From positions 1 to 32,000 of the forward strand of contig JAJRZD010000053.1 of the NCBI GenBank assembly GCA_024275415.1: a stretch of 32,000 bases of DNA, given 5' to 3'. Source of the DNA: an archaeon. GTDB taxonomy: Archaea; Asgardarchaeota; Thorarchaeia; Thorarchaeales; Thorarchaeaceae. The notes below the pieces were generated by a model, which was given only the letters and a program-made list of their open reading frames with translations, had not been told where the DNA came from and did no database searches. Each line of letters begins with the position of its first letter. The first letter of the stretch is position 1. Below are positions 130-18,256 of this stretch, piece by piece. Position numbers and translations under genes: made by a program.

Positions 130-1596
130 TTACAAGTATCCCACCAAGTGACTTGCAATTTGATAAGACATATGTACCGGCACTGCGTTTCCTATTAGCC
201 TGTATTTGGTCGCAGTAGAACCCGGAAGAATCCAGTCATCTGGGAAGCCTTGAATTCTTTTATATTCTTCAATACTTAGAGGTCTTGGTTCTTCGGGATG
301 AACAAGCATCGAACCTTTTTGAGCTGGAGATGTTACCAGAGTCGGTGAAGGTTCATCCCACGATAGTCTTCTATAGAATCCCATTTTTCCCCCTCCAGAG
401 TTATATGCTCCCCCCATCGCCTGTCGGATTGAATCCTTTGGAAGATGCCTCCAATTTCCCCCTGGCGGGATTAATATCATGTACCCACATCTATTTTCTG
501 AAAGCTTTAGGTACTCGGGTTTGTTCTTGTGCAAGTCGGTTACGGCTTCCCAAAATGAAACCCACGGTTTTGTACTCTCATCAAACAGAGTTTCTTGCTT
601 CCAATTCGATCCCCCTGCATTCGGGGTATTCGAATGAGTCGGTTTTGGCATTGGTAGGAGATCACTCTTACATCCAATAATAATCACCCTCCGTCGTTCT
701 TGGGGCGTTCCAAAATCTGCAGCATTTAGGACATCATACCGAATGTGATATCCGGTGCTATTCAACATCTCTAGTACAATTTTGAACACCGACCCCTTCT
801 CCTCGTCTGGTAGCAATTTTCGACCATTCCTTTCAGAAATCGGTACATGTTTCAGCCGAGATGAAAGAATCCCTGTCACTTCTTCGATTACGAAGATTTT
901 TGGTTGAAGGTCATTGATCGCCCTTATAAACTCCTTAAGGGGTGATGAACGAGGGTCGCTAAACCCTTTTCGTTTTCCTGCAGTCGAAAATGGTTGGCAT
1001 GGCTGACCACCTGTAAGAACATCGATCTCTCCCACATCCAGTCCGGTTTCACTAAGTATTTTGTTTGAAGAAACCGTTGCAAAATCATTCAATACAAATG
1101 GTATATCTGGTAAGTTGTTCTCAAGTGTCATGCGAGAATAATCATCGATATCAGTAGCGAGTTTAATATCGAAACCTGCAGCCAGAAATCCCAAATCCAG
1201 GCCCAGTGCACCTGAGAATAAGGACACGACATTGTATCCATTAGTCTTGAATTTCCTAAGTTCCTGTATTGGTGGAGGTGCGATTGGTCTGTCAAGGTTC
1301 TTTCGTTCAATACCTCCCTGATGCTCGTCCCAAACTTTTCTCACCCTATCAATAAGAGTAGAAAAATCGTCCGGTGTTTCTTTTGCTTCGACAAGAGCTT
1401 CTTCAAAGGCATTGATGTGGCAGCAAGGCAATTTCTCGCCTGCTTCAACCCGTTCCCTCTCGTATATCCAAGTCTTTAGCCCTACAAACGCCCTGATATG
1501 CCCCTTTGATTTGTTTTTTGATTGCTGTAATTGGTAATATTCCTCTTTCAGAGTTTGATAACGGCTTATGCATTCATTCATACTTCCATCAACCAT
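130..1596 (-). CDS. DNA (cytosine-5)-methyltransferase with ~115-aa N-terminal extension
   Basis: Motif I FSGALGLDLG, motif IV GGQPCQPFS (catalytic PC), motif VI variant IEEV, motif VIII QERRRV, motif IX RPLSIEEYKRIQGFPDDW, motif X GNAVP. TRD region GGKMGFYRRLSWDEPSPTLVT resembles GGNCC/GGWCC-type MTases (from recall). Confidence 0.95.
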   Translation of the reverse strand: MVDGSMNECISRYQTLKEEYYQLQQSKNKSKGHIRAFVGLKTWIYERERVEAGEKLPCCHINAFEEALVEAKETPDDFSTLIDRVRKVWDEHQGGIERKNLDRPIAPPPIQELRKFKTNGYNVVSLFSGALGLDLGFLAAGFDIKLATDIDDYSRMTLENNLPDIPFVLNDFATVSSNKILSETGLDVGEIDVLTGGQPCQPFSTAGKRKGFSDPRSSPLKEFIRAINDLQPKIFVIEEVTGILSSRLKHVPISERNGRKLLPDEEKGSVFKIVLEMLNSTGYHIRYDVLNAADFGTPQERRRVIIIGCKSDLLPMPKPTHSNTPNAGGSNWKQETLFDESTKPWVSFWEAVTDLHKNKPEYLKLSENRCGYMILIPPGGNWRHLPKDSIRQAMGGAYNSGGGKMGFYRRLSWDEPSPTLVTSPAQKGSMLVHPEEPRPLSIEEYKRIQGFPDDWILPGSTATKYRLIGNAVPVHMSYQIASHLVGYL

Positions 1597-1781
1597 ATTT
1601 CCAACTAACAGCGCATTAATGGTTACATACCATTTCCGTGAGTGGTTTCTGATGCCTTTTTGTTTCTATCGAATTTACCAATCATTTTTGTGTTTGTGAG
1701 TTAATAAATCCGTGGAACGAACTATCAGGAATTTAAGGGGCATCCCTTTTATCATTCATCCTGCTTCATTCAAATAAAGTA

Positions 1782-2483
1782 TTGGAGTTATCCGATGTGG
1801 AGATTGATCATCCCGTTCAAGAAGCATCTCGGAGAAAAGAAGACTTTGTATCTAGCATTCTTGAGTGGTCTAAGGACAACCTTCGTTCTTTTCCCTGGAG
1901 AGAAAATCCAACCCCCTATTCGGTATTGGTTGCTGAGATACTGCTTAGAAGAACTACTGCTACAGCTGTAAGCCGGATTTTCCCTCTATTCATGGAAACA
2001 TATCCGAGTCTGGAATCTTTATCTAAGGCTGCCCCTACCGAACTAGAATCTATGCTTTCTACAATAGGCTATCAGAAAAAGAGAGCAGCTATCTTGAACA
2101 CTGTCGCAGCTTATATCTTGAAGGAGTTTCAAACTGTCCCTTCTACGAAAGAGGATTTACTCCAAATCCCTCATGTAGGGCACTATACAGCTGGAGCGAT
2201 ACTTTCCATTGGTTATGGAATACCATCAGGAATGGTAGACTCTAACGTTGAGAGGATTTTTAGAAGATACTTCTGCAATGTCGTTGCCAATACAGGGAGG
2301 TTTTCATTACTTCGAAAAATAGCCGACCTTCTTGTCCCCCAAAAAAACCATACAAACTATAACTATGCCCTTCTAGATATTGGAGCATTGATTTGCAAAT
2401 ACGGCCGCCCTAGATGCGAAGTATGCCCATTGAAAAGAACTTGTGACCATTTCACATGTAATTGTCCTTCTAACAATTTATAA
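1782..2483 (+). CDS. mig: HhH-GPD [4Fe-4S] DNA glycosylase, Mig-like T:G mismatch thymine glycosylase
   Basis: FPWR, EILLRRTTA (Mig-type rather than MutY QQT), HhH IPHVGHYTA with Tyr where EndoIII has Lys, MVDSN, and Cys-x6-Cys-x2-Cys-x5-Cys (CKYGRPRCEVCPLKRTC). TTG start; adjacent to a C5-MTase. Confidence 0.85.
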   Translation: MELSDVEIDHPVQEASRRKEDFVSSILEWSKDNLRSFPWRENPTPYSVLVAEILLRRTTATAVSRIFPLFMETYPSLESLSKAAPTELESMLSTIGYQKKRAAILNTVAAYILKEFQTVPSTKEDLLQIPHVGHYTAGAILSIGYGIPSGMVDSNVERIFRRYFCNVVANTGRFSLLRKIADLLVPQKNHTNYNYALLDIGALICKYGRPRCEVCPLKRTCDHFTCNCPSNNL

Positions 2484-2530
2484 AGAACGAATTTGTCATC
2501 CGAGCGTCTGTGGAGTCTTGGTTGTAGGAG

Positions 2531-3499
2531 ATGATGTTATTGGATTCGGAACTGTCGGATCTGGAATTTGAATATCTTACCGAGGTACTAATGGATATTA
2601 ATGGAATTGCCAAACACAAGGCTGGAAAAATCATTACGTTGAGAGATTCCTTCTGTGGTTTTAATAACATAACTGAAAATGAGTTGAACGAGATACAATC
2701 ACTCTCATCCGAGCAGGTCATGGAAGTAATCACTGTCCTACAGAGTATTGATTTCGATAGTGGTGTAGAAATCCTGTTCACTAAAAGGCGGTTGGAACTG
2801 TTCCTGAGGAACCAGTTCAGACGTCTTAATAGGCTGACTCTTGATTCGTTTGACATCAATATGTTCTTGATCAAAGCTCTAGGATTCACAACAGCGGAAG
2901 AAGCAATCGAGTTCTATTTGTACCAACGGATAACTCGTTCAGCTGTCACCTCGTGGGGACAAAAAACGATTGAAGACATTTGTATTCTTGCGGGGGCTGA
3001 AAAAATCCCTTCTGCTGACAATGTGGGCGTATCTGGAAAAAACTTTGACTTGAAAAAAGTGACGCCTGAAAAGACATATTATATCCAAGTAAAATCAGGC
3101 CCCAACACTATGAACATTGGAATGGTTCAATCACTTAATGATATGATAAACAAAATCGAAAGGAATCAGGAAAATGTTACGGGAATACTTGGCATGACCT
3201 ATGGGGAAAGATCTCAGATTTCATCACAGATTATGGGTGCTCTTGATGATGCAGAGAGCCGTGCAAAAATCGGAAAGGAGTTCTGGGCGCTTCTTTCCGG
3301 AAGAGATACATATTATACTGAATTGATTGAACTGATTGATAACATATCACATAATGACACAAATGGCTACAACATGACTTTTCTTGAAGCTGTGGTTCAG
3401 AAAAAACAAGAATTAGAGGCGGAATGGGAAGAAAAGTATGGGTCTCTAGGATCATCCGGACTAGATGCTTATGTTCAGAGCTTGATAGACGGAGCCTGA
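2531..3499 (+). CDS. Putative type II restriction endonuclease (PD-(D/E)xK, EcoO109I/TdeIII-like) with N-terminal HhH-like domain
   Basis: FDL...YIQVKSGPNTMN catalytic-type motif, upstream INMFL...RSAVTSWG helix, location beside a C5-MTase, AGGAG just upstream of the ATG. Confidence 0.7.
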   Translation: MMLLDSELSDLEFEYLTEVLMDINGIAKHKAGKIITLRDSFCGFNNITENELNEIQSLSSEQVMEVITVLQSIDFDSGVEILFTKRRLELFLRNQFRRLNRLTLDSFDINMFLIKALGFTTAEEAIEFYLYQRITRSAVTSWGQKTIEDICILAGAEKIPSADNVGVSGKNFDLKKVTPEKTYYIQVKSGPNTMNIGMVQSLNDMINKIERNQENVTGILGMTYGERSQISSQIMGALDDAESRAKIGKEFWALLSGRDTYYTELIELIDNISHNDTNGYNMTFLEAVVQKKQELEAEWEEKYGSLGSSGLDAYVQSLIDGA

Positions 3500-4083
3500 T
3501 AACCCCTGAGATGTCAAATTTTTGCGTCCTAAAGTGAGCAATTTCATGTGGTCTGAAATCAAGTGAGATAATGAAACAAAATATCTTGTGAAGAATGCAG
3601 CAGACTTGATTAGCATACGAAATATGTCGTGTTTTGCAACCATTGTATCCCCCTGACATATCATCTTTCATAGCTCATTGTTGAAAGGCGCTCTGTCAGC
3701 AGTTCTACTAGCATTAAGAGCTGCAATGGTAACTCATGGCATTGCATCCTTCTTTTGCTTTTACAGACTCGACCCCTTACTCGACAATAATGTGAGAATA
3801 TTGCATCTGTTCACCCGAAATCGTATCTGTATCAATCAATTGACTTGTCCACAATCCACCTCGATTAACCATATTCGGAAACTGGCTCGGAACCCACGAG
3901 CTATAGAAACAAGTACGCCTTCTGCGACGACAGTGATACTTTCAGCGACCTCTCCAGGTAGCTTGTGTGCCTTTCACAAGACAGTCGTACAGCATAATCT
4001 ACTAGTGTTCATCCTTTGCTCAATGTCCGCACCATAAAGGTTACTTGGAGAGAGCCGAGAGCAACCGTATCCGAGGCAGGGTC

Positions 4084-6069
4084 ATGTCAGAGTTCAGGCT
4101 AGAAGCACCGTTCAAACCCACAGGCGACCAACCGCAGGCCATCGTCAAGCTCGTCGAAGGACTAGAGGCGGGTCTCGACCACCAGACCCTCCTCGGCGTC
4201 ACTGGCTCCGGCAAGACCTTCACCATGGCAAACGTCATCGAGCGCTACAATCACCCGACCCTCGTCATCTCACACAACAAGACCCTCGCCGCCCAACTCG
4301 CCTCCGAGTACAAGCAGTTCTTCCCACTCAATGCCGTCGAGTACTTCGTTTCCTACTACGATTACTACCAGCCAGAGGCCTACGTACCCAGCAAGGACAT
4401 GTACATTGAGAAGGAGGTGGACATCAATGCGGAGATTGAGCGGTTGCGGCACTCGGCGACTAACTCACTGCGGACGCGCCGGGATGTGATAGTGGTGGCG
4501 TCGGTGTCATGTATCTACGGAGTGGGGAACCCGGACGAGTACGACCACTTCCGTATGTACCTTGAGGTGGGGATGGATATTGACCGGCGCGAGATACTGG
4601 AGAGGCTGGTGGCGATGCAGTATCAGCGGAACGACATGGAGATTCGCCCTGGGGTATTTCGAGTGCGAGGGGATGTCATCGATGTCTATCCTGCAGCGTC
4701 AGAGAACAGCATCAGGATCGAGTTGGATGGGGAGCGGATAGAGAGGATATCGACGCTGGAAGCACTGACAGGGAAGCGACTGTGGCAGAACGACTGGACG
4801 GAGCTCTTTCCAGCAAGACACCATGTGGCGCGGTACGAGACCATCCTTGAGGCGCTAGAACCGATACGGCAGGAGATGGAGGAACGTGTGGAGTGGTTCA
4901 AGAAGCAGGGGAAGCTGGTCGAAGCGGATCGGCTTCGGCGACGGACACTTTTCGACCTTGAGATGCTGCGTGAAACGGGTCACTGTACAGGGATAGAGAA
5001 CTACTCTCGATGGATTGATGGAAGATCTCCTGGCCAGAAGCCTTACACCCTACTTGATTATTTTCCGGATGATTTCCTGATGATAATTGATGAGAGTCAC
5101 ATGACAGTCCCCCAGATACGTGGCATGTACCATGGTGATCAAGCCCGAAAGAAGAACCTTGTTGACTATGGGTTCAGGTTGCCATCCGCTCTTGATAACC
5201 GTCCCCTCACATTTGACGAGTTCGAGGAATACATGAAACGGGTCATCTACACGAGTGCTACGCCTGGCTCCTACGAACGGCAGCATAGCAAACAGATCGT
5301 GGAGCAGCTTCTTCGACCCACCGGACTTCTTGACCCGTACATCACCGTCAGACCGATAAAGAACCAGATAGACGACCTTATCTCCGAGATTAGAGTCACA
5401 GAAGGTCAGGGCCACCGGATACTAGTCACCACCTTGACAAAGAAGACTGCGGAGATGCTCACAGAGTACCTTGTGGAGAATGGTCTGCGTGCTCGTTACC
5501 TGCACTCAGACATTGGGACTGTGGAGCGGATAGAGATCATCCGCCAGTTACGACAGGGCAAGTTCGATGTGCTAGTGGGAATCAACCTTCTCCGTGAGGG
5601 GCTCGACCTACCTGAAGTAGGGCTTGTCGCAATAATGGATGCTGACAAAGAAGGATTCCTTCGGACTGATTGGGCACTCATTCAGACCATGGGTCGTGCG
5701 GCACGAAACGCAGATGGTCGAGTGATTCTCTATGCAGACCATACCTCGGCCGCGATGCAGAAGGCAATTGATGAAACGAACCGGAGGAGGGCATACCAGA
5801 TCAAGTACAACAAGGCACATGGGATTACTCCAACGAGCATATCAAAGCATGTGCACGATATTGCCATAGGCATCAAAACAAAGGAGTTGCAGGAGCAGAG
5901 CACCCTTGAGGAATTCGACCCTCTAGAGGTCGAGGAGCTTCTAGACTACATAGTCAACTTGGAAGAGATGATGAAGGAAGCAGCCAGCAATCTCGAATTT
6001 GAGAAGGCTGCCAAGCTCAGGGATCAGATTGTCGAACTACGAAAGAGAATCGAGGACAGTGCGACATGA
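4084..6069 (+). CDS. uvrB: Excinuclease ABC subunit B
   Basis: Walker A GVTGSGKT, beta-hairpin FVSYYDYYQPEAY, DESH, INLLREGLDLPEV, QTMGRAARN, C-terminal UVR coil. Start set to ATG 4084 (MSEFRL) rather than TTG 4045. Confidence 0.98.
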   Translation: MSEFRLEAPFKPTGDQPQAIVKLVEGLEAGLDHQTLLGVTGSGKTFTMANVIERYNHPTLVISHNKTLAAQLASEYKQFFPLNAVEYFVSYYDYYQPEAYVPSKDMYIEKEVDINAEIERLRHSATNSLRTRRDVIVVASVSCIYGVGNPDEYDHFRMYLEVGMDIDRREILERLVAMQYQRNDMEIRPGVFRVRGDVIDVYPAASENSIRIELDGERIERISTLEALTGKRLWQNDWTELFPARHHVARYETILEALEPIRQEMEERVEWFKKQGKLVEADRLRRRTLFDLEMLRETGHCTGIENYSRWIDGRSPGQKPYTLLDYFPDDFLMIIDESHMTVPQIRGMYHGDQARKKNLVDYGFRLPSALDNRPLTFDEFEEYMKRVIYTSATPGSYERQHSKQIVEQLLRPTGLLDPYITVRPIKNQIDDLISEIRVTEGQGHRILVTTLTKKTAEMLTEYLVENGLRARYLHSDIGTVERIEIIRQLRQGKFDVLVGINLLREGLDLPEVGLVAIMDADKEGFLRTDWALIQTMGRAARNADGRVILYADHTSAAMQKAIDETNRRRAYQIKYNKAHGITPTSISKHVHDIAIGIKTKELQEQSTLEEFDPLEVEELLDYIVNLEEMMKEAASNLEFEKAAKLRDQIVELRKRIEDSAT

Positions 6070-8975
6070 AGGCTGCAAAGAAACCAATTCCGGATGCGGG
6101 CTCTGAGGGGCCAAAATCAATAATCGTGCTTGGCGCTGCGGAAAATAACCTGCGCAACATCAACGTCGAGATTCCGAAGAATAGTTTGACTGTCGTCACC
6201 GGAGTTTCTGGTAGTGGGAAAAGCTCCCTCGTATTCGATACGATATTCGCTGAAGGGCAACGACGGTTTGTCGAGAGTCTTTCGGCGTATGCCCGTCAGT
6301 TCCTTGGGATGCTTGAGAAGCCGAAGGTTGACTTCATGTCAGGACTCTCTCCATCCATATCAATAGATCAGAAAAGCGTAGGGCGGAACCCACGATCCAC
6401 TGTTGGCACAATCACTGAGATTTACGATTTCTTGCGACTCCTATATGCCCGTGTTGGTGAGCCCCATTGTCCCTCTTGTGGAAAGAAGATAGAGCCCCAG
6501 ACCGCCCAGCAGATTGTTGATCGAGTCCTCAAGCTAGGTGAGGGGACTCGCATCATGATCATGGCTCCAATAGTGAGGGGTAGAAAGGGCGAGTATCGAA
6601 AGGAGTTCAGAGACCTTGCCAGAAAGGGGTTCATCAGGGCAAGGGTAGACGGCGAACTTATTGACATAGAGGAAGGACTCTCACTCGACAGGTACTTCGA
6701 GCATACAATCGAGGTGGTGCTAGACAGGCTTCGAGTCAACGAGTCCACACGAGGACGGGTCGCTGAAGCTGTGGAACTTGCTTTGAACATGGCAGATGGT
6801 GTTGTCACCATTGTTGCAGATGGAAAGGAAATCACACTCTCGGAGAAGTTTGCATGTGTTGACTGCGGCATCAGCTTGCCTGAGATGGAGCCAAGGATTT
6901 TTTCATGGAACACCCCACAAGGCGCCTGTGAGGTCTGTACCGGTCTGGGAACGGTGAGAGAGTTTGACCCTGACCTTTTCATCAAAGACCCCAACCTCTC
7001 CATTAAGGAGGGTCTCTTCCTTACGGATGAGTGGATGACCAGACGGATGGTCGATGGCAGGTACGATGAGATTCTCCAGCGATACGGGTTAACAGTCGAT
7101 ACTCCTTGGAATGAGATGACCGAGGAACAAAAGCACCTCTTGCTCTGGGGCTCAGGTGACGAACTCTTCGAATTCACATGGAACGGGGAAAATGAGGAGA
7201 TCTTTGCTCAATGGAAGGGCACTTTCAAGAGACCCTTCGAAGGATGGGTAGAGAGGTCGAAGCGCCTATACAGACAGACTCGTTCTGATTATCGAAGGAA
7301 ACAGATTGAGAAGTTCATGTCCGAACAGACCTGTCCTGTATGTAATGGCGGTAGACTTCGAAAGGAGGCATTGGCTGTTACCTTCAACGGTCGTAGCATC
7401 GACGAACTTGATGGGATGTCTATAAAGGAGTTAAGGGCGTTCTTCGACTCCGCAAAGGTCGACCCTCGTCTTGAGCCCGTTGCATTACCAATCCTTCGTG
7501 AGATCCAAGGACGGATAGGGTTCCTTGAAGAGGTAGGTCTCGATTATCTTACCCTCAACAGGACTGCACCCACGCTGGCAGGCGGGGAGGCACAGCGTAT
7601 CCGTCTTGCAAGCCAGATTGGATCGAACCTTGTAGGCGTGACCTATGTGTGCGATGAGCCATCCATCGGTCTTCACGCACGGGACAACATCAGGCTACTT
7701 AATTCACTGAAGCGACTACGTGATGCTGGGAACACTGTGCTTGTTGTGGAGCATGACGAGGAAACGATGTTCAACGCGGACTACATCGTGGATCTCGGCC
7801 CTGGTGCTGGCTCGGAAGGAGGCGATGTGGTGGCCGCGGGAACACTTGAGGAGGTCTTGAAGTCAGAGCATTCATTGACTGCCAAGTTCCTCCGTGGTGA
7901 AGAGCAGATTCCAGTACCCAAGGAACGGCGGAAGCCCAATGGTCGGTGCCTTGTGATCAAAGGGGCTCGGCACCACAACCTCAAGAACATAGATGTCAAG
8001 ATACCATTAGGACTGTTCATCGCTGTCACTGGTGTATCCGGGAGTGGCAAATCAAGCCTTATTGTCGAAACATTGCAACGAGCGTTGGCAAGACGTTTCC
8101 ATAGGGCTGAGGAAACACCAGGTGCGCACGATTACATCGAAGGAGTTGACCAGCTCGATAAGGTGATTGTCATCGACCAGAGTCCTATTGGTAGGACACC
8201 TCGCTCAAACCCTGCGACCTATGTTGGTCTGTGGACGCCTCTCCGCGAGCTCTTCGCGTCCCTCCCTGAGTCCAAGATTCGTGGCTACAAGCCCGGACGG
8301 TTCAGTTTCAATGTCAAGGGTGGACGGTGCGAGAAGTGTCGTGGTGCAGGTGTCGATGTCATAGAGATGCAATTCCTTCCGCCTGTTCAGGTGACCTGTA
8401 GCGATTGCAAAGGCAGGAGGTACAACCGAGAGACCTTGCAGGTTCGTTACAAGGGGAAGAACATTGCCGATGTCCTATCGATGCGTATCGATGAGGCAGT
8501 TGAGTTCTTTGAGGGAATCCCCAGCATCTACAGGCGTTTGAAGACCCTCTGTGATGTCGGTATGGGCTATGTCCAGCTCGGCCAGCCAGCAACGACACTG
8601 AGCGGAGGCGAGGCTCAGCGGATCAAGCTGAGCAAGTTCCTCTCACGTCCTGCAACTGGACAGACTCTTCTTTTGTTGGATGAACCTACGACTGGTCTTC
8701 ATTTCGCGGACATCAAGAAGCTTCTCGAAGTCCTACACCAGTTGGTGGATCTTGGGAATACAGTGCTGGTTATCGAACACCAACTGGATGTGGTGAAGAC
8801 TGCGGACTGGGTCATTGACCTTGGGCCGGAGGGTGGCGACGAAGGAGGCTATCTTGTTGCTGAAGGAACCCCTGAACATATCACTACTGTCCCACAATCA
8901 TATACTGGGCGATACCTCAAGGAGTTGCTGGAGCCCAATAGAGCAAAACATGCCGGAGGTCGGGATAAAGAATGA
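6066..8975 (+). CDS. uvrA: Excinuclease ABC subunit A, copy 1
   Basis: Two Walker A GVSGSGKS, signatures LAGGEAQR and [16 protein letters not shown] and DEPTTGLH, Zn modules, UvrB-binding region. ATGA overlap with uvrB. Confidence 0.97.
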
Positions 8976-11833
8976 CAGGCTTCATTAGTGTGAGGGGCGC
9001 TGAAGAGCACAACCTGAAACATATTGATGTTGATATCCCCCGTGACAAGCTTGTTGTGGTCACAGGTCCAAGCGGGTCTGGAAAAAGCACACTTGTCTTT
9101 GACACGGTCTTTGCTGAAGGACAGCGGAGATATGTCGAATCGCTCAGTTCGTATGCACGACGCTTTCTGGGACGCCTCGACAAGCCAAAGGTTGAGAAGA
9201 TCACAGGTCTGCCTCCAGCCATTTCTATTGAGCAGAAGGGACGAACAAAGAATCCCCGGAGTACTGTCGCTACCAGCACAGAGATCCATGATTACCTGCG
9301 GCTACTATTCGCTAACATCGGGATACCACACTGCGTCCAATGCAAGCGTCCGATGGAACAGCTGACTCCTGAGTCTGCTGCGAGGCTCCTGCTCCATGAG
9401 AACGGTGGGCATCGGATACATATTCTTGCTCCCGTAATTCGAGGTGAGCCAGGGAAACACACCGAAACGTTCGAGAAGCTCCTTGGTAATGGGTTCGCAA
9501 GGGCGCGGGTAGATGGCGAGATACTGGATCTCGAAGGCATTGAGATTGATGGTCGGGAGAAACATACCATTGAAGTGGTTGTGGATCGGATTGAACTGAC
9601 TCATGTGAATCGAGAACGTTTGATTAGCTCCCTTGAAACTGCCCTTGAGGTTGGCAGTGGTGTGGCAATTGCCTACCGTGATGGGGCGGATGATCTTACC
9701 TTCGCTGACCAGCTCATGTGTCCCTATTGTGGGATCCAATATGACAAGCTTGGCCCAAAGGCGTTTTCTTATAACCGACCAGATGGTGCCTGCCCCGAGT
9801 GTAATGGGTTAGGAGTCACGATGGATATCAATCCCGATCTTGTCATTTTCGATGATGAGCTGACCGCGTGGGACCTTGCCAAAAAGGCATTCCTGAACCG
9901 AAAATGGCTCCTTAGACGCATTGATGCTCTTGCTGATGCTGTTTCAGAGTTTGACCCGTACATACCGTACAGGGATCTTTCGGACTTTGCAAAAGAACTA
10001 TTCCTCTGGGGTCGTCCCGATGTTCAGATCTCATATGTGGCTGAGAGCGAGAACTCACACTGGGAAGTCACTCGCAAATGGACTGGTGTCATGGCATGGC
10101 TGAAGACAACCTTTGAGAAGGGTAATAGAAGCGGGAAGCCATGGTATCGATATCTTGCTTCTCAGATTGGTGAGAGATACGCATCAAGGACGACCTGTCA
10201 TGCATGTCACGGCCGGAAGCTCAGGCCCGAAGCCCTTGCCGTCACGATTGCTGACAAGTCCATTGATGAGATATCTGCGATGACAATCGAGGCAGCGTAT
10301 GATTTCTTTGAGGGCTTGGAGCTGAGTGAACGTGACCAGCGTATCGCAGAACTAATCCTGAAGGAGATCAAGGCTCGGCTCAGGTTCCTCCTATCCGTTG
10401 GGTTGGAGTATCTTAACCTCGACCGTCTGTCCATGACCCTGAGTGGGGGTGAGAGTCAACGGATCCGTTTGGCAACACAGATTGGTTCGGCATTGACTGG
10501 AGTGCTGTACTGTCTTGACGAGCCTTCCATTGGACTTCACCCTCGGGATGTGAACCGGCTCATCGAAACCTTCTACAACCTCCGCAGTCTTGGGAATACC
10601 GTGGTCGTTATCGAGCATGACCGAGATACCATTCATGCCGCAGACTACATCATTGACCTTGGGCGCTTCGCAGGAGTACATGGCGGCGAAGTCGTCACAC
10701 AGGGAACACCCGAAGAGGTGCTATCCAATGACCTGTCCCTGACAGCCCAGTACCTTACGGGAACAAAACAGATACCTGTCCCAACGACAAGACGGGCTGG
10801 CACCGGGAAGTCTATTGTCCTGAAGGGAGCGTCACAGAACAATCTCAAGCGGATTGATGTCGAGTTCCCGCTTGGCAAGTTCATATGTGTCACAGGAGTT
10901 TCTGGCTCTGGTAAGAGCACACTCCTCAACGAGACCCTGTACAAAGCAATCGCTCGTGTGATGAACGGTGCTGCTCTCTCTCCAGGCAAGTACGAATCAA
11001 TCGAAGGCATCGAGTATATTGACCGCCTTGTTCTAGTGGATCAGTCCCCCATAGGACGCACCCCTCGTTCGAACCCTGCCACCTACACAAAGGTCTTTGG
11101 TGAGATACGCGACCTTTTTGCCAAGATGCCGGAGGCAAAGGCACGGGGTTACAGTCCGGGACGTTTCAGTTTCAACACACGAGAAGGACGATGTGAGAAA
11201 TGTCAGGGTAGCGGTGTCTTACAGGTTGAGATGCACTTCATGTCTGACGTGTTCATCCAGTGTGATGTATGCAATGGCAAGCGATTCGACAGAGAAACCC
11301 TTGAGATCACCTACAAGGGGAAGAACATCAACGAGGTCCTCTCTATGACGATCGAGGAAGCCCTCTTCTTCTTTGCAGACATCCCCAGAATTGCTGACAA
11401 ACTACAAACCCTGGCCGATGTCGGACTCGGGTATCTGCAGCTGGGGCAACCTGCAACCACCCTCAGCGGTGGTGAAGCACAAAGGATGAAGCTTGCAGCA
11501 GAACTAGCTCGACGGGCAACAGGGAACACGCTCTACATCCTCGACGAGCCGACCACAGGGCTTGCTGCATCAGATGTCCACACATTGCTGAAGGTGATCA
11601 ACCGACTTCTCGATAAGGGGAACACCATAATCATGATAGAGCACAATCTTGAGGTCATTAAGACCGCTGACTGGGTCATCGACCTTGGTCCCGAAGGTGG
11701 TGATAAGGGCGGAATGGTCGTAGCCACTGGCACTCCTGAAGAGGTTTCTGAGATGACTGACTCTTACACCGGCCTGCATCTGCGTGATGTCCTGTATGGC
11801 AATAATGTGAGGTATGGTACTATTGATGGCTAG
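8972..11833 (+). CDS. uvrA: Excinuclease ABC subunit A, copy 2
   Basis: GPSGSGKST and [17 protein letters not shown] and [16 protein letters not shown] and DEPTTGLA, Zn modules, UvrB-binding region retained. ATGA overlap with uvrA copy 1. Confidence 0.95.
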
Positions 11834-11944
11834 TCCGTCACATACTTGTGGTCATGGCACCCACCCAAATCCAAAAGTGCACGGATGACGAATGAATCTG
11901 ACGACTATCCTGTGAACACGACCAAGCAATAGTATGGAGATGAA

Positions 11945-13765
11945 TTGAATCCATTGCCAGACCATCTGACCAATCTAGTACGAGACCTACCCTTGCAACC
12001 AGGAGTCTACCTCTGGAAAGATGAGAAGGGACATATCCTCTACATTGGAAAGGCAAAGGAGCTTCGAAAGCGTGTCAGCTCGTATCTGAGAAATCATAGT
12101 GACAGGCGTACATGGGATCTCATGAAGCAAGTACGCGACCTCGAAACGATAGTGACGAATACTGAACGCGAAGCGCTCATCCTTGAGGCTACATTAATCA
12201 AGAAGCACCAGCCCCGATACAACCGTGCCCTCAAGGATGATAGGCGTCATGCATGGATACGCGTCGATCTTACTTCCGAAAAGCCCACATTCATTGTCAC
12301 TAGAGAGGTGGAGCGGGACGGTGCGCGCTACTTCGGGCCATACCGTAGCACGAAACGACTGGAGAAGTTCCTTGACACAGCACGGAAGTTCATCCCTGTT
12401 GCGATGTGTACTGACCCCACTAAGGTGAAGCGCGAGTGTATGGACTATCACCTCAATCGCTGCGTGGGCATCTGTAAGGAGAATCTCACAAGGGACGCAT
12501 ATCGAAGCCTAGTCGACCAGATGTGTCTATACTTGGACGGGAAGTCGGAAGAGCTTACTCGGTCAATCGAGCAAGAGATGGAACGGGCATCGGCGAATCT
12601 TGAGTTCGAGAAGGCTGCGGAACTGCGTGACCGCCTCGCCGACATCTCAATCATCATGCGACGCCAGAAGGTCGTGGATACACAAGGAGTTACACGTGAT
12701 ATTCTTGGAATAGCACGTACAGAGGAAGCTGCGCTCGTTGAGATGCTTCTTGTCAGGGGTGGGCGATTGATAGGACAGGACAGCTTCTATTTCGAGGAGG
12801 GCATGGAGTCCACCGATGCCGATGTTCTGACCAGTTTCATAGAGCAGTTCTATTTCATGCTACCAAAAGTCCCAGAGGAGATACTCCTTCCTGTAGAGAT
12901 CCCTAACATGCGACAGTTGTCCGACTGGCTCTCAGAAACTGCAGGCACTCCTGTCCAGATACAGGTCCCGCAAGAGGGGAAGCACCTCGAACTTGTTGAG
13001 ATGGCAAACAAGAACGCATATCGTCAATTGCGGAAGATCCTCATTCTTGGTGAACGGGACGAGGAGATAATCGATGATGGCGTCAAGGAACTCAAGAACG
13101 CTCTGGGGCTCTCTCGGGCACCACTGCATATCGAAGGGTTTGACATCGCCAATATCCAGGGGACTGACCCGACTGGCTCTTGTGTCGTCTTTGAGAACGG
13201 CCAACCCAACAGTGCCAGATATCGTATGTTCAGGATCCGTTCGAAACAGACCCCTGACGATTATGCCATGATGCGAGAGGTCATCTACAGGAGGTATCGC
13301 GGGCGTCTGGAGGAGGGCAAGGCACTTCCTGACCTTATCATCGTTGACGGTGGGAAGGGACAGCTGAATGTCGCTCTCAGTGCCCTTGAGGAGCTAGGAC
13401 TGGATTACCTTCACGTCGTTGGCATCGCAAAGCAGATGGAACTCCTTTACACACGCGACAACATGGATGGCATCGCTTTAGAGTATGGGTCTTGTGGATT
13501 GAGGCTTGTCCAACAGGTACGTGACGAGGCACACAGGTTCGCTCAGAAGTACCATCATATCCTGCGAGAGAAACGGTTCAGTGGGTCTATCCTCGAGGAA
13601 GCACCAGGTATCGGCCCCAAGCGTCGCAAAGCACTGATGCTGGCATTCGGCAGCTACGATGGCGTCAGGAATGCATCAGTGGAATCGATCGCTTCTGTGG
13701 ACGGGATGAACATGAAGAGTGCTATCTCTCTCAAGAACTGGATTGAAACCAATGACCCATTTTAG
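11945..13765 (+). CDS. uvrC: Excinuclease ABC subunit C
   Basis: GIY-YIG PGVYLW...YIGKA, Cys-rich region, UVR coil, RNase H-like IEGFDIAN/DDY/DGGKGQ/RDEAHRFA, C-terminal HhH PGIGPKR. TTG start. Confidence 0.97.
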   Translation: MNPLPDHLTNLVRDLPLQPGVYLWKDEKGHILYIGKAKELRKRVSSYLRNHSDRRTWDLMKQVRDLETIVTNTEREALILEATLIKKHQPRYNRALKDDRRHAWIRVDLTSEKPTFIVTREVERDGARYFGPYRSTKRLEKFLDTARKFIPVAMCTDPTKVKRECMDYHLNRCVGICKENLTRDAYRSLVDQMCLYLDGKSEELTRSIEQEMERASANLEFEKAAELRDRLADISIIMRRQKVVDTQGVTRDILGIARTEEAALVEMLLVRGGRLIGQDSFYFEEGMESTDADVLTSFIEQFYFMLPKVPEEILLPVEIPNMRQLSDWLSETAGTPVQIQVPQEGKHLELVEMANKNAYRQLRKILILGERDEEIIDDGVKELKNALGLSRAPLHIEGFDIANIQGTDPTGSCVVFENGQPNSARYRMFRIRSKQTPDDYAMMREVIYRRYRGRLEEGKALPDLIIVDGGKGQLNVALSALEELGLDYLHVVGIAKQMELLYTRDNMDGIALEYGSCGLRLVQQVRDEAHRFAQKYHHILREKRFSGSILEEAPGIGPKRRKALMLAFGSYDGVRNASVESIASVDGMNMKSAISLKNWIETNDPF

Positions 13766-13824: not shown

Positions 13825-14061
13825 ATGACAATTAGAGTACTCTTCACAGTAATGGCAAAACCAAACAAGGCCAATGTCATACTACACAAGTTGAGGTCTC
13901 AAGAGGAGGTCATTGAAGCACACACGATTTCCGATGGGATATTCGATGTACTTGCTTGGATTGGCGTGCCGTCCTTGGAGCAGTACAGGCTGTTCATCGA
14001 GAGAATAGCAGATATGCCCGAAATAGACGATTTTGAGTCGTTCATCACTGTTGATAACTAG
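13825..14061 (+). CDS. Stand-alone Lrp/AsnC ligand-binding (RAM) domain protein
   Basis: 78 aa with the RAM pattern (EVIEAHTISDGIFDVLAWI...LEQY..FI.RI..MPEI..FESFI); no N-terminal HTH. Confidence 0.7.
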   Translation: MTIRVLFTVMAKPNKANVILHKLRSQEEVIEAHTISDGIFDVLAWIGVPSLEQYRLFIERIADMPEIDDFESFITVDN

Positions 14062-15404
14062 GGTGTCCCATTTATCTCTGCTAGGTGCTTCCTGTTCTTT
14101 CTGCCCCCATACATCCCATAGACGGCGAACCCGATCACTGTGAGGATCCCTCCTAGAACCAGTGTTTCGAAGTGCAAGCTTGGCACAAGCACCAGACAAC
14201 TGATGACGCCAAGGATTGGGATGAGTGGGAAGTAGGGCTCCTTGAACGTCCCCGGTACACTGAGCCCTTTCCTGTGCAACACGATGACCGATGCATTCAC
14301 GATTGAAAGTCCTACAAGATACCCAAAGTCTGAAAGTGATGCCACAAGAGACACATCACCCGGAAATGCAAAAATGGACACAAGGATGAGCGTTGTGATC
14401 AACGCCGGGATTGGGGTTCTAAGCCTCGGATGAACCTTGTCCAATATCGAGGGGAAATACCGGTCTCGCCCCATCGAGTATGCCACCCTTGCAGTTGCTA
14501 GAAAGGTCGCATTGAGCGCTGCATAGTTCGATGCCGCCATCCCCGCAAGCCCAATATACCCAGCCACTGGCCCCATCATGATCGCATACACATCCGCTAT
14601 CGGTGTGTTCGATTCAGCTATGTTCGTGTAATTCGTTGCACCCACTAGCACTAGCGCTGCCCCCATATACACTACCGTCGCAATGACTAACGTCAAGATG
14701 ATCGCCCGTGGGATGTTCCTTGCCGGCTCCTTTATCTCTTCTGACGCTGTTGTAATTAATTCGAAGCCAACGAAGCTGATATAAATAAATGAAACCGCTG
14801 TCATAAACTGGGGGATTCCCACAAAGTCGGGGATGAAGGGGGTGAGGTTGGCAGGTTGAATAAAGAAGAGTCCGATGAAGACGAAGCCAAAGAGGATAAA
14901 GGACTGAGCGATGTTAAGGACACCGAGGACACCGGAAACGCCTCTGATGCTGATGAGGTTAGTGATGAAAGTCACGAAGATGATAATGATTGCGATCATG
15001 CCGACGGTGGAGCTGGTCGCACCCACGATAAAGAACGCGAAGGTATGTGCCACTGCGAGAGCATAGAGTCCACAGGCAACGACATTGCCGATGAAAAGGA
15101 ACCAGCCTGTCAGGAACCCAAGAGAGCCACCAAATGTGTCGGCGGCGAAGGTATACCCACCGCCCTGTTTTGGAATTGAGCAAGCTAGTTCAGCATAGTT
15201 GATGGCGGTGAAGATAGTCAACAGTCCAGTAGCAAGGTATGCAATGACGATAGCAGGTCCTACCATTCCTGCGGCAGTGCCAGAGATGACATAGATACCA
15301 CCTCCAAGCATCGCACCCAGACCGATGTTTGTAGCACCAACGAGACCGAGACGACGTGCGAATTTACCGTCCGGGCGCTCATCACCGAAAGATTCGACCA
15401 ACAC
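14058..15404 (-). CDS. APC-family amino acid permease
   Basis: About 12 hydrophobic segments; TM1 GAMLGGGIY, YAELA, TM6 SFVGFE, EEIKEPARNIPRAI, ARVAYSMGRD. Confidence 0.92.
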   Translation of the reverse strand: MLVESFGDERPDGKFARRLGLVGATNIGLGAMLGGGIYVISGTAAGMVGPAIVIAYLATGLLTIFTAINYAELACSIPKQGGGYTFAADTFGGSLGFLTGWFLFIGNVVACGLYALAVAHTFAFFIVGATSSTVGMIAIIIIFVTFITNLISIRGVSGVLGVLNIAQSFILFGFVFIGLFFIQPANLTPFIPDFVGIPQFMTAVSFIYISFVGFELITTASEEIKEPARNIPRAIILTLVIATVVYMGAALVLVGATNYTNIAESNTPIADVYAIMMGPVAGYIGLAGMAASNYAALNATFLATARVAYSMGRDRYFPSILDKVHPRLRTPIPALITTLILVSIFAFPGDVSLVASLSDFGYLVGLSIVNASVIVLHRKGLSVPGTFKEPYFPLIPILGVISCLVLVPSLHFETLVLGGILTVIGFAVYGMYGGRKNRKHLAEINGTP

Positions 15405-16522: not shown

Positions 16523-18256
16523 ATGCCTAAGACCTTCAACATGTTAGTTTGCATGTCGTTCGTTCTTGCCTTGGTGTTTGCTGCAACACCGCTTGCCGTG
16601 ACGCCAGCCACGACAGTTCAGCCCGTTGGTTCCGCTATTCCGGCACAGACCTATTCGTGGCAGACTTTCGATAGGAACATGAATGTCACCACTTTTGTAT
16701 CCCCTGACGGTAGCAAGGAACAGCTCTGGCACTTCCTGAACTCAGCGAAGGAGAGCATCTATGTGGAGATTTACGGGATCAACAATCCCCGTATTCTCGA
16801 TCTCATCCACGAGCTTCGTAACAGTAAGCCTTCGCTGGAGATGAAGTTCCTGTTGGGTTGGAATAGCCTTGGCTACCCGAGCCAGAACAAATATGTTGCC
16901 AACAACCTCACGCAGCTCGGATATGAAGTTCGTTGGACCAATGACACTGACTTTACTTATGCTCATCAAAAATTCGTGATAATCGACAACAAGACAACAA
17001 TCGTTCACGCAGGGAACTGGGCGAAGACAAGCTTTCCGGAATCGGATGGCAAAGCCAATCGTGAATGGAACATTGCGATGACAGATACCGAAGTAACAGG
17101 CTATTATCGCAATGTCTTCGATGGTGACTGGAGAAATGGTACACTTTATGACCCTGTAGCACATGGTACGGGCACTCCGTTGACCTATTCTTATTCTACA
17201 TCGACATATCAGGAGCCCTTCGCAACAGCTGGGACTTTCAGCGGACAGATGAAGGTGACCCCTGTGTTCAGCCCCGACACAAGCCTTGCCGGGATTCTGT
17301 ATATCATCAATTCAGCACAGGCAACACTCGACATCCAAATTCCGTACTTCACCAGCGTAGGGAACGGTGGTTCTGTTGATCAAATCATCGATGCAATCAT
17401 CGCAGCCAAGAACCGTGGTGTCACGGTACGAGTCATCAGCGAGGAAGAAAAGGACTGGGTCGAGATTGAAACGATCCTTCTAGAGCATGACATCCCCATC
17501 GTCTGGCAGGACACTCGCTGGTTCTCTGCTAATCATAACAAGGGGATTATCGCCGATGGACGGATCGTGATGATAAGTAGCATCAATTTCAGCGACAACA
17601 GCGTTGAGAATAACAGAGAAGCTGGAGTGATTATCGAGAACGAAGATGTCGCACAGTGGTATCAGACGGTCTTCGATTTTGATTGGGAGATTGCGGATTC
17701 TGATGCGCTTGATGATGTCAATGTCTATTGGACACCAAACATTCCCACAAACACTTCTGTCATCAATGTAACTGTCTTCGCACACATGCTGAATGGCTCA
17801 GCAAATGTCGATGATGTGGAGTTGGATGTGAAGATCAATGATGGTGCGTGGTCTAATGTGTCTATAATCGACAACATCTACCTGTCACAAGAGGATGACT
17901 TGGAGAACTATTACTACGTCATCCCTGCACAGGCGGACATGACCAACATCACAGTGGTCGGGAGGATACTTGTCGGCTCGACATGGTACACGGGTGTTCC
18001 TATGGTCATAAGAGTGCGAAACTCGATTGCCTCTCCCACTCCGACAACCACTACAACGCCAACTACCCCAACTACCCCGGCGACCCCGACTCCAACGCTG
18101 GATCCAGTCGCCCAGTTCATTGCAGACTATGGTCTATGGCTTGCAGTGGCAGGAATCGGCATCATTTGTGGTGGAGGATCTGCGGTAGCAATCAAGAAAG
18201 GTTTGATGCCCGGAAGCAAAAGAAAAAGGACTCGCCGTCGGCGAAAGCGGAAGTAG
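16523..18256 (+). CDS. Secreted, C-terminally anchored phospholipase D-family (2xHKD) protein
   Basis: N-terminal signal peptide; HQKFVIID and HNKGIIAD; Pro/Thr linker; TM helix; polybasic tail KRKRTRRRRKRK. Confidence 0.88.
   Translation: MPKTFNMLVCMSFVLALVFAATPLAVTPATTVQPVGSAIPAQTYSWQTFDRNMNVTTFVSPDGSKEQLWHFLNSAKESIYVEIYGINNPRILDLIHELRNSKPSLEMKFLLGWNSLGYPSQNKYVANNLTQLGYEVRWTNDTDFTYAHQKFVIIDNKTTIVHAGNWAKTSFPESDGKANREWNIAMTDTEVTGYYRNVFDGDWRNGTLYDPVAHGTGTPLTYSYSTSTYQEPFATAGTFSGQMKVTPVFSPDTSLAGILYIINSAQATLDIQIPYFTSVGNGGSVDQIIDAIIAAKNRGVTVRVISEEEKDWVEIETILLEHDIPIVWQDTRWFSANHNKGIIADGRIVMISSINFSDNSVENNREAGVIIENEDVAQWYQTVFDFDWEIADSDALDDVNVYWTPNIPTNTSVINVTVFAHMLNGSANVDDVELDVKINDGAWSNVSIIDNIYLSQEDDLENYYYVIPAQADMTNITVVGRILVGSTWYTGVPMVIRVRNSIASPTPTTTTTPTTPTTPATPTPTLDPVAQFIADYGLWLAVAGIGIICGGGSAVAIKKGLMPGSKRKRTRRRRKRK

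Follow-up and report, generated by a model that had tools for sequence, protein, structure and literature searches.

A DNA repair locus of Thorarchaeota encodes two different UvrA proteins side by side. The locus lies in positions 1 to 32,000 (forward strand) of contig JAJRZD010000053.1. This 32,000-nucleotide stretch, hereafter the window, belongs to a Thorarchaeota metagenome-assembled genome (assembly GCA_024275415.1, family Thorarchaeaceae; 3.5 Mb in 127 contigs, 92.9% complete). In the window, uvrB is followed by two full-length, diverged uvrA genes, designated uvrA1 and uvrA2, and by uvrC. The uvrA1-uvrA2 tandem is a real, ancient feature that is conserved across the order. UvrA is the textbook example of a symmetric homodimer; the best reading of the thorarchaeotal tandem, to which we assign a probability of about one half, is that its products (A1 and A2) form a functional heterodimer that acts as the main damage sensor.

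Coordinates of the genes, overlaps, and motifs are collected in Table 1. Identity of the four products is clear from profile scores: UvrB reaches 1028 bits against the NCBIfam UvrB equivalog (cut-off, 743), UvrC reaches 547 bits against TIGR00194 (cut-off, 285), and A1 and A2 reach 1404 and 1327 bits, respectively, against NF001503 / TIGR00630 (curated equivalog cut-off, 1147). Orthologues of UvrB at other thorarchaeotal loci are 660–661 amino acids in length. A sequence-only reading of this DNA had described two full-length, coupled UvrAs joined by ATGA overlaps within one uvr operon and had argued that they did not result from duplication during assembly. The open reading frames and overlaps are as described. 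A1 and A2 are 51% identical over 954 aligned residues, which span their whole length, and they are not an assembly duplicate. The description holds throughout save for uvrC, which begins after a gap of about 110 nucleotides and is not translationally coupled to uvrA2. A search of the host genome revealed a single uvrB and no UvrA besides A1 and A2.

Table 1 Features of the thorarchaeotal uvr locus (positions in the window)
Feature	Position	Strand	Remarks
uvrB	4084..6069	+	661 aa from ATG 4084 (probable start); open reading frame open from TTG 4045
uvrA1	6066..8975	+	969 aa, class I UvrA by domain content, more canonical paralogue
uvrA2	8972..11833	+	953 aa, class I UvrA by domain content, derived paralogue
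uvrC	11945..13765	+	606 aa, TTG start; loosely linked
ATGA overlap, uvrB stop / uvrA1 start	6066..6069	+	
ATGA overlap, uvrA1 stop / uvrA2 start	8972..8975	+	
A1 RRFVE, Phe68	6261..6275	+	corresponds to dimer-axis Tyr55 of Ct-UvrA
A1 UvrB-binding domain, LDRYFEH	6684..6704	+	LDKxKKH in most UvrAs
A1 signature I, LAGGE	7575..7589	+	distal ATPase site; 17/18 A1 orthologues
A2 Walker A-I, Pro33	9065..9091	+	V, I or L at this position in single UvrAs
A2 YARRF, Arg64	9152..9166	+	corresponds to Gln65 wedge position of Ct-UvrA
A2 UvrB-binding domain, RGEPGKH	9440..9460	+	replaces canonical RGRKGE[YH]
A2 Walker B / D-loop II, DEPTTGLA	11543..11566	+	distal ATPase site; GLS or GLA in 16/16 A2 orthologues

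Judged by domain content, A1 and A2 are both complete class I UvrAs. Each contains two ATP-binding cassette (ABC) modules with Walker A, Q-loop, signature, Walker B, and H-loop motifs as well as six CxxC pairs (three Zn modules) at matching positions. The Pfam UvrB-interaction domain (PF17760) is recognized at 125 bits in A1 and 93 bits in A2, and the insertion or DNA-binding domain (PF17755) at 71.5 and 41 bits, with cut-offs of about 23 in each case. These matches agree with the earlier claim that the Zn modules and the UvrB-binding region are kept in both copies. Deviations in the ATPase motifs comprise LAGGE in signature I of A1 together with GLA in D-loop II and GP in Walker A-I of A2. 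Both paralogues match class I chains (9GXK of Ct-UvrA, 2R6F of G. stearothermophilus, 3ZQJ of M. tuberculosis, and 3PIH of T. maritima) from end to end with 1000–1220 bits, whereas matches to the class II structures 2VF7 and 7SH1 are weaker and partial. In class II UvrAs, neither the UvrB-binding domain nor the first Zn module is present (PMC9328131); because A1 and A2 carry that domain and all CxxC pairs, neither belongs in class II. They do not constitute a fused double UvrA either, inasmuch as a stop codon and ATGA restart separate the two coding sequences. Against the fused-type model NF001885 (PRK00635) the score is 708 bits with a cut-off of 3054, which neither paralogue passes. The insertion domains, rightly singled out at first reading as very different, are the most diverged part of the pair with 21% identity between A1 and A2.

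We surveyed 161 Asgard genomes and read 18 thorarchaeotal loci for gene order and overlap. The order uvrB-uvrA1-uvrA2 is found in at least 17 independent thorarchaeotal assemblies, and the 4-nucleotide overlap between uvrA1 and uvrA2 is retained in 16 of the 18 loci; uvrC lies between 12 nucleotides and about 5 kb 3′ of uvrA2 in the other genomes. The tandem is thus order-wide, and the possibility raised at first reading that it might be confined to one assembly can be set aside. Whole-genome searches located an adjacent A1-A2 pair on one contig in almost all members of the family. Where fewer matches were obtained, the assembly is fragmented or incomplete, and two genomes (90–92% complete) contain no match to uvrA1 or uvrA2; none of the well-assembled genomes searched contains only one of the two genes. 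Orthologues of A1 and of A2 each fill more than 100 clusters (90% identity clustering) and are 66–87% identical to A1 and 67–83% identical to A2, respectively, beyond which identity falls to 53% or less. All of these records are annotated just as UvrA, and the distinction between A1 and A2 is absent from current annotation. The one genome available from the sister family carries uvrB together with counterparts of both uvrA genes, one A1-like (63% identity) and one A2-like and split at a contig end, which indicates that the pair predates the family. Other Asgard genomes contain a single uvrA (often arranged as uvrB-uvrA-uvrC), extra copies that are not linked, or a double UvrA in one polypeptide; this fusion, 1917–1972 amino acids in length, is found across one family that source records assign to Heimdallarchaeota.

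Some thorarchaeotal genomes contain, in addition, a second UvrA cluster that is absent here (L075:2098-11809 and L078:1929-17816). It includes a double UvrA of about 1630 amino acids, the halves of which are without the N-terminal and UvrB-binding part and in this respect class II-like, and a third single UvrA that is 44% identical to A1 and has Ser or Thr at the wedge position.

Sequence divergence within each paralogue indicates that both copies are under strong purifying selection and that A2 is not decaying. Synonymous sites are saturated in almost all thorarchaeotal pairs, with nonsynonymous divergence (dN) of 0.1–0.27; in the only two pairs that are measurable, the ratio of nonsynonymous to synonymous divergence (omega) is about 0.03 for both uvrA1 and uvrA2. 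The dN of A2 is about 1.1 times that of A1. Orthologues of A1 share an identity of 0.77 in the UvrB-binding domain and those of A2 an identity of 0.71; identity within paralogues is otherwise similar across domains, except that the insertion domain evolves fastest in both (0.52 in A1 and 0.45 in A2). Relaxed selection on the second copy, which had been named as an outcome that would count against a heterodimer, did not occur; omega is low and the domains are conserved within A2.

One reason to consider mixed dimers lies in the dimer interface. In Ct-UvrA, protomers contact each other through R54-L507, S58-I85, Y55-Y55, Y55-A84/P83/I85, and F66-F66 and further through G80-M508, L81-L507, and P83-L507/V510, and, when ATP is bound, residues Q65, Y62, and F66 reach into the DNA helix (PMC12796330). 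We mapped these residues onto A1 and A2 by alignment to solved chains and checked the mapping against 9gxk and 3zqj. A1 and A2 are identical at 11 of the 14 tabulated dimer-contact or wedge positions. Two of the remaining three differ conservatively (Phe in A1 and Tyr in A2 at Y55; Ser and Ala at A84), and the third is the wedge position Q65, which is Gln in A1 and Arg in A2. The position of M508 is occupied by Val in A1 and Thr in A2 and is variable among single UvrAs too.

Each paralogue carries its own set of fixed residues at these and other sites. Residue counts, which were based on hidden Markov models, covered 110 A1 clusters, 110 A2 clusters, and 23 canonical single UvrAs (15 bacterial and 8 Asgard). 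Pro33 in Walker A-I, Tyr54, and Arg64 are present in 109 of the 110 A2 clusters. A1 has Val, Leu, or Ile at the Walker A-I position together with Phe68 and Gln78 in 108 of 110 clusters. Counted singly, Pro33 is found in 109 and Arg64 in all 110 of the A2 clusters, the dimer-axis residue is Tyr in every A2 cluster and Phe in 109 of the 110 A1 clusters, and Gln78 is found in 108 A1 clusters. Among the 23 single UvrAs, Pro is never found in Walker A-I, and the wedge residue is Gln in 21 and Lys in two. The UvrB-binding domain contains a further mark of A2, a charge-reversed R[GD]E.GKH motif that is present in all A2 sequences and in none of the singles sampled; KKH is kept in A2. A1, in which RGRKGEY is canonical, has a conserved LDRYFEH. 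This arrangement recalls complementary erosion of the UvrB-binding domain, a candidate explanation that we did not adopt: the pattern is real, but LDRYFEH-like variants exist in single-copy UvrAs (L038 and L070), which places the A1 variant within the variation of single UvrAs, and a search of the literature yielded no UvrA-UvrB contacts at residue level. Mfd was also considered as an alternative partner for the UvrB-binding domain of A2 and was dropped because the host genome contains no Mfd.

The sequence-only reading had rested its case for a heterodimer or split lesion specificity on translational coupling and on different motifs, namely LAGGE in A1 and DEPTTGLA in A2, which it took as signs of asymmetry. 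Both motifs are present, and both are lineage-wide (Table 1); D-loop II reads GLH in all A1 orthologues. The same deviations nonetheless appear in single-copy Asgard UvrAs: LAGGE in L070-L072, two of which come from near-complete 1.4-Mb genomes, and GLA or GLS at D-loop II in L068 and L074. For this reason neither motif can be read as diagnostic of a heterodimer. Moreover, each motif is part of the distal ATPase site in the protomer that carries it (PMC6486640, PMC12796330). Since the two deviations fall in the same type of site, they do not divide the dimer into one good and one bad site. In ABC-ATPase terms, GLH, which comes directly after Walker B in ATP-binding domain II, represents the D-loop and not the H-loop. 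The motif argument for the heterodimer proposed at first reading is accordingly weak, and the proposal retains plausibility on the other grounds presented here, the interface, Pro33 and Arg64, and strict co-retention of the two genes.

Comparison with other UvrAs revealed that A2 resembles the second module of proteins in which two UvrAs are covalently joined. When A2 was used as the query, the best 150 representatives (50% identity clusters) were almost all fused double UvrAs of 1600–2300 amino acids; no fused protein of the thorarchaeotal A1-A2 type was found among these 150. We counted paralogue-specific residues in the 125 proteins that contain two N-terminal ATP-binding-I domains. Walker A-I Pro is present in exactly one half of 46 proteins (the C-terminal half in 38), in both halves of eight, and in neither half of 71. 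The wedge residues of the two halves, scored in about 125 proteins, are Gln/Arg or Arg/Gln in 32, Gln/Gln in 49, and Arg/Arg in five. If two wedge Arg residues clashed, Arg/Arg combinations should be depleted; we found no such depletion in the fused proteins (five observed compared to about four expected).

Fused double UvrAs form a large and little-described class that is very diverse. Some second halves are without the UvrB-binding or insertion domain, and some of the proteins reach about 2340 amino acids through extra sequence. A Heimdallarchaeota fused UvrA of 1916 amino acids (L066:3499-9249; P0011) exhibits its own asymmetric erosion of motifs, with GLA in both D-loops of its N-terminal half and with LSNGE in signature I, ISGGE in signature II, and IDHN in H-loop II of its C-terminal half.

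Phylogenetic analysis placed A1 and A2 in separate monophyletic groups, each with a support of 99–100 in the Shimodaira-Hasegawa-like approximate likelihood ratio test (SH-aLRT). A1 and its A1-like relative in the sister family group with the N-terminal halves of fused UvrAs, including that of Heimdallarchaeota (SH-aLRT 91). A2 sits on a long stem and is unstable, lying beside the Heimdallarchaeota C-terminal halves in one tree and beside a single-copy Asgard UvrA in another. Approximately unbiased (AU) tests of prune-and-regraft topologies (LG+F+G4, not fully optimised) yielded p values of 0.057 for A1 and A2 as sisters, 0.21 for A2 with the Heimdallarchaeota C-terminal half, 0.42 for A1 with the N-terminal half, and 0.062 for all of them in a single clade; no topology was rejected at 5%. 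We considered whether the thorarchaeotal tandem is a split Heimdallarchaeota fusion. Placement of A1 fits this scenario, placement of A2 is unstable, and the AU tests neither support nor reject it. A2 may have originated by duplication in a thorarchaeotal ancestor, through ancestry shared with the fused forms, or by separate acquisition.

Considered together, these observations suggest the following model. The uvrB-uvrA1-uvrA2 genes would constitute a co-translated repair module from which A1 and A2 are made in about equal amounts. Mixed dimers would assemble through the almost unchanged interface of ATP-binding domain I; indeed, with a near-identical interface and translation from one mRNA, they are to be expected by default. 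A1 would contribute a near-canonical module and A2 a derived one, distinguished by Pro in Walker A-I, Arg in place of Gln at the wedge, and altered distal D-loop and UvrB-binding motifs. The resulting sensor would be asymmetric across its two-fold axis, a feature shared with the covalently fused double UvrAs that occur in Heimdallarchaeota, Planctomycetes, and many further bacteria, and would still pass DNA on to the one UvrB and from there to UvrC. We infer not only that A1:A2 dimers form, but also that they are the selected functional unit and that their asymmetry is put to use. Selection for the mixed dimer appears likely in view of co-retention of the genes, the fixed residues at the dimer axis and wedge, and the likeness of A2 to fused second modules. 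In favor of the heterodimer count the absence of Pro33 and Arg64 from the 23 single UvrAs and their recurrence in one half of fused proteins, the abundance of fused double UvrAs, also in Asgard relatives, along with the grouping of A1 with N-terminal halves, and the presence of one uvrB and no other UvrA in the genome.

Several observations weigh on the other side. The interface residues fit A1:A1 and A2:A2 equally well, and the interface of A2 is fully canonical. Every catalytic and Zn motif is kept in both proteins, each of which could act alone. A2 itself served to retrieve the fused representatives, and the comparison drew on a small set of 23 single UvrAs. Pro/Pro and Arg/Arg combinations occur in fused proteins at about chance frequency, and homotypic pairing of A2-like modules is therefore tolerated. 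Finally, co-location of uvrA1 and uvrA2 could reflect mere membership of the same repair operon.

These points lead to the main rival of the mixed dimer, which we regard as possible but less probable. It holds that A1:A1 and A2:A2 are two separate homodimeric sensors that share UvrB and UvrC and, by virtue of their insertion domains and wedges, differ in the lesion classes or DNA contexts that they recognize; the operon would provide co-regulation only. Two complete class I UvrAs with an interface that permits homodimers would suit such a division of labor, as would insertion domains that share 21% identity between paralogues and 45–52% within them. The extra UvrA paralogues found elsewhere in some thorarchaeotal genomes point to a tendency to diversify sensors, which fits as well. 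The interface itself nevertheless counts against two separate homodimers, because mixed dimers would form unless they were actively prevented, and we see no interface divergence of the kind that prevention would entail. In addition, the special residues of A2 match those of fused second modules rather than those of free-standing single UvrAs.

A stronger form of the favored A1:A2 dimer would make it obligate and functionally polarised. The Arg wedge, distal site, and charge-reversed UvrB-binding motif of A2 would then cause the two protomers to engage different strands or sides of a lesion and UvrB to be loaded in a defined orientation or stoichiometry (A1-A2-B1 and not A2B2). We consider polarisation to this degree rather unlikely.

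Still less probable is an accessory or regulatory role for A2, in which it modulates or caps A1 or acts independently of UvrB in the manner of the drug-resistance class II UvrAs. Such a role would explain why the RGRKGE motif of its UvrB-binding domain is charge-reversed and variable, why the distal D-loop His is lost, and why A2 evolves slightly faster than A1. Yet the UvrB-binding domain of A2 is kept as a whole, scoring far above its Pfam cut-off (93 versus 23 bits) and remaining 71% identical within the paralogue; class I structures are matched far better than class II; and the gene resides in the uvr operon rather than in a biosynthetic or resistance cluster. Least probable is redundancy, the duplicate being kept for dosage or left over neutrally: the two genes do belong to one family and one operon, but a copy that evolved neutrally would have decayed or disappeared in part of the lineages, and order-wide retention, saturated synonymous sites, 51% identity, and residues fixed in more than 100 clusters each all contradict it.

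How does the tandem compare with known systems? Canonical class I homodimers (2R6F/3UWX of G. stearothermophilus, 3PIH, 3ZQJ, and the 9GXK series) have the same full architecture, and the thorarchaeotal operon also contains uvrB and uvrC; the difference is that one gene supplies both protomers, whereas two diverged genes are available in Thorarchaeota. Compared to the single UvrAs sampled, in which Pro33, Arg64, and the D-loop II change never occur together, A2 combines all three, and A1 is set apart by Phe68. Fused double UvrAs (NCBIfam PRK00635-type, about 1800 amino acids), which have been reported for Planctomycetes (PMC8567305), likewise consist of two diverged full modules at a 1:1 ratio, one of which often has the A2-like Walker A-I Pro or wedge Arg. 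Their modules are part of one polypeptide; the thorarchaeotal modules are separate chains, with a stop codon and an ATGA restart between their coding sequences. Given that fused double UvrAs exist, a UvrA pair that is asymmetric is not by itself without precedent. Class II proteins such as D. radiodurans UvrA2 (2VF7), DrrC, and Ecm16 (7SH1) provide another instance of a second UvrA-family gene beside class I, but they are found outside the uvr operon and thorarchaeotal A2 inside it.

An analogy may also be drawn with heterodimeric ABC ATPases such as the TmrAB exporters, in which adjacent, co-translated paralogues similarly carry paralogue-specific deviations in their ATPase sites. ATP sites of these exporters form between chains, which produces one degenerate and one consensus site. 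In UvrA, both composite ATP sites lie within one chain, and the deviations of A1 and A2 each fall in the distal site of their own chain. A full-text literature search, outside which most subscription journals lie, yielded no account of two class I UvrAs that are coupled but not fused, whether in Asgard archaea or in other organisms, in keeping with the impression of the sequence-only reading that the arrangement was undescribed.

Continuing debate surrounds the choice between UvrA2B2 and UvrA2B1 as the working complex, the selection of the damaged strand, and the manner in which a symmetric sensor passes an asymmetric lesion on to UvrB (reviewed in PMC7835731). If the UvrA dimer of Thorarchaeota is indeed split into separately encoded, mutable protomers, experiments could address the part played by each protomer directly, which is impossible with a homodimer. 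A1 and A2 carry fixed differences at the wedge that enters DNA and at the dimer axis, as well as in the distal ATPase site and in the UvrB-binding domain. Were the heterodimer polarised as well, it would represent a natural, separable system for learning how UvrA chooses the damaged strand. In broader terms, Asgard archaea adopted UvrABC repair of the bacterial type and reshaped it along at least two lines, as a tandem in Thorarchaeota and as a fusion in Heimdallarchaeota.

The remaining genes in the vicinity show no evident link to repair on the downstream side, where an amino-acid permease (14058-15404, minus strand) and a PLD-like two-domain protein (16523-18256) are encoded. Directly 5′ of uvrB on the same strand lies a 119-amino acid open reading frame (3678-4037) with no Pfam match. 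The G+C content of the window steps at about 4 kb, and we considered whether the uvr genes are foreign. A restriction-modification island of low GC content (about 0.41) directly upstream of the operon (130-3499) accounts for the step, which thus provides no evidence for a foreign origin of the uvr genes. The island encodes a C5 cytosine methylase (130-1596, minus strand), an HhH-GPD glycosylase-like protein (1782-2483), and an EcoO109I-like type II endonuclease (2531-3499). The position of the glycosylase between the 5-methylcytosine methylase and the endonuclease recalls the T:G mismatch glycosylases that accompany some 5-methylcytosine systems.

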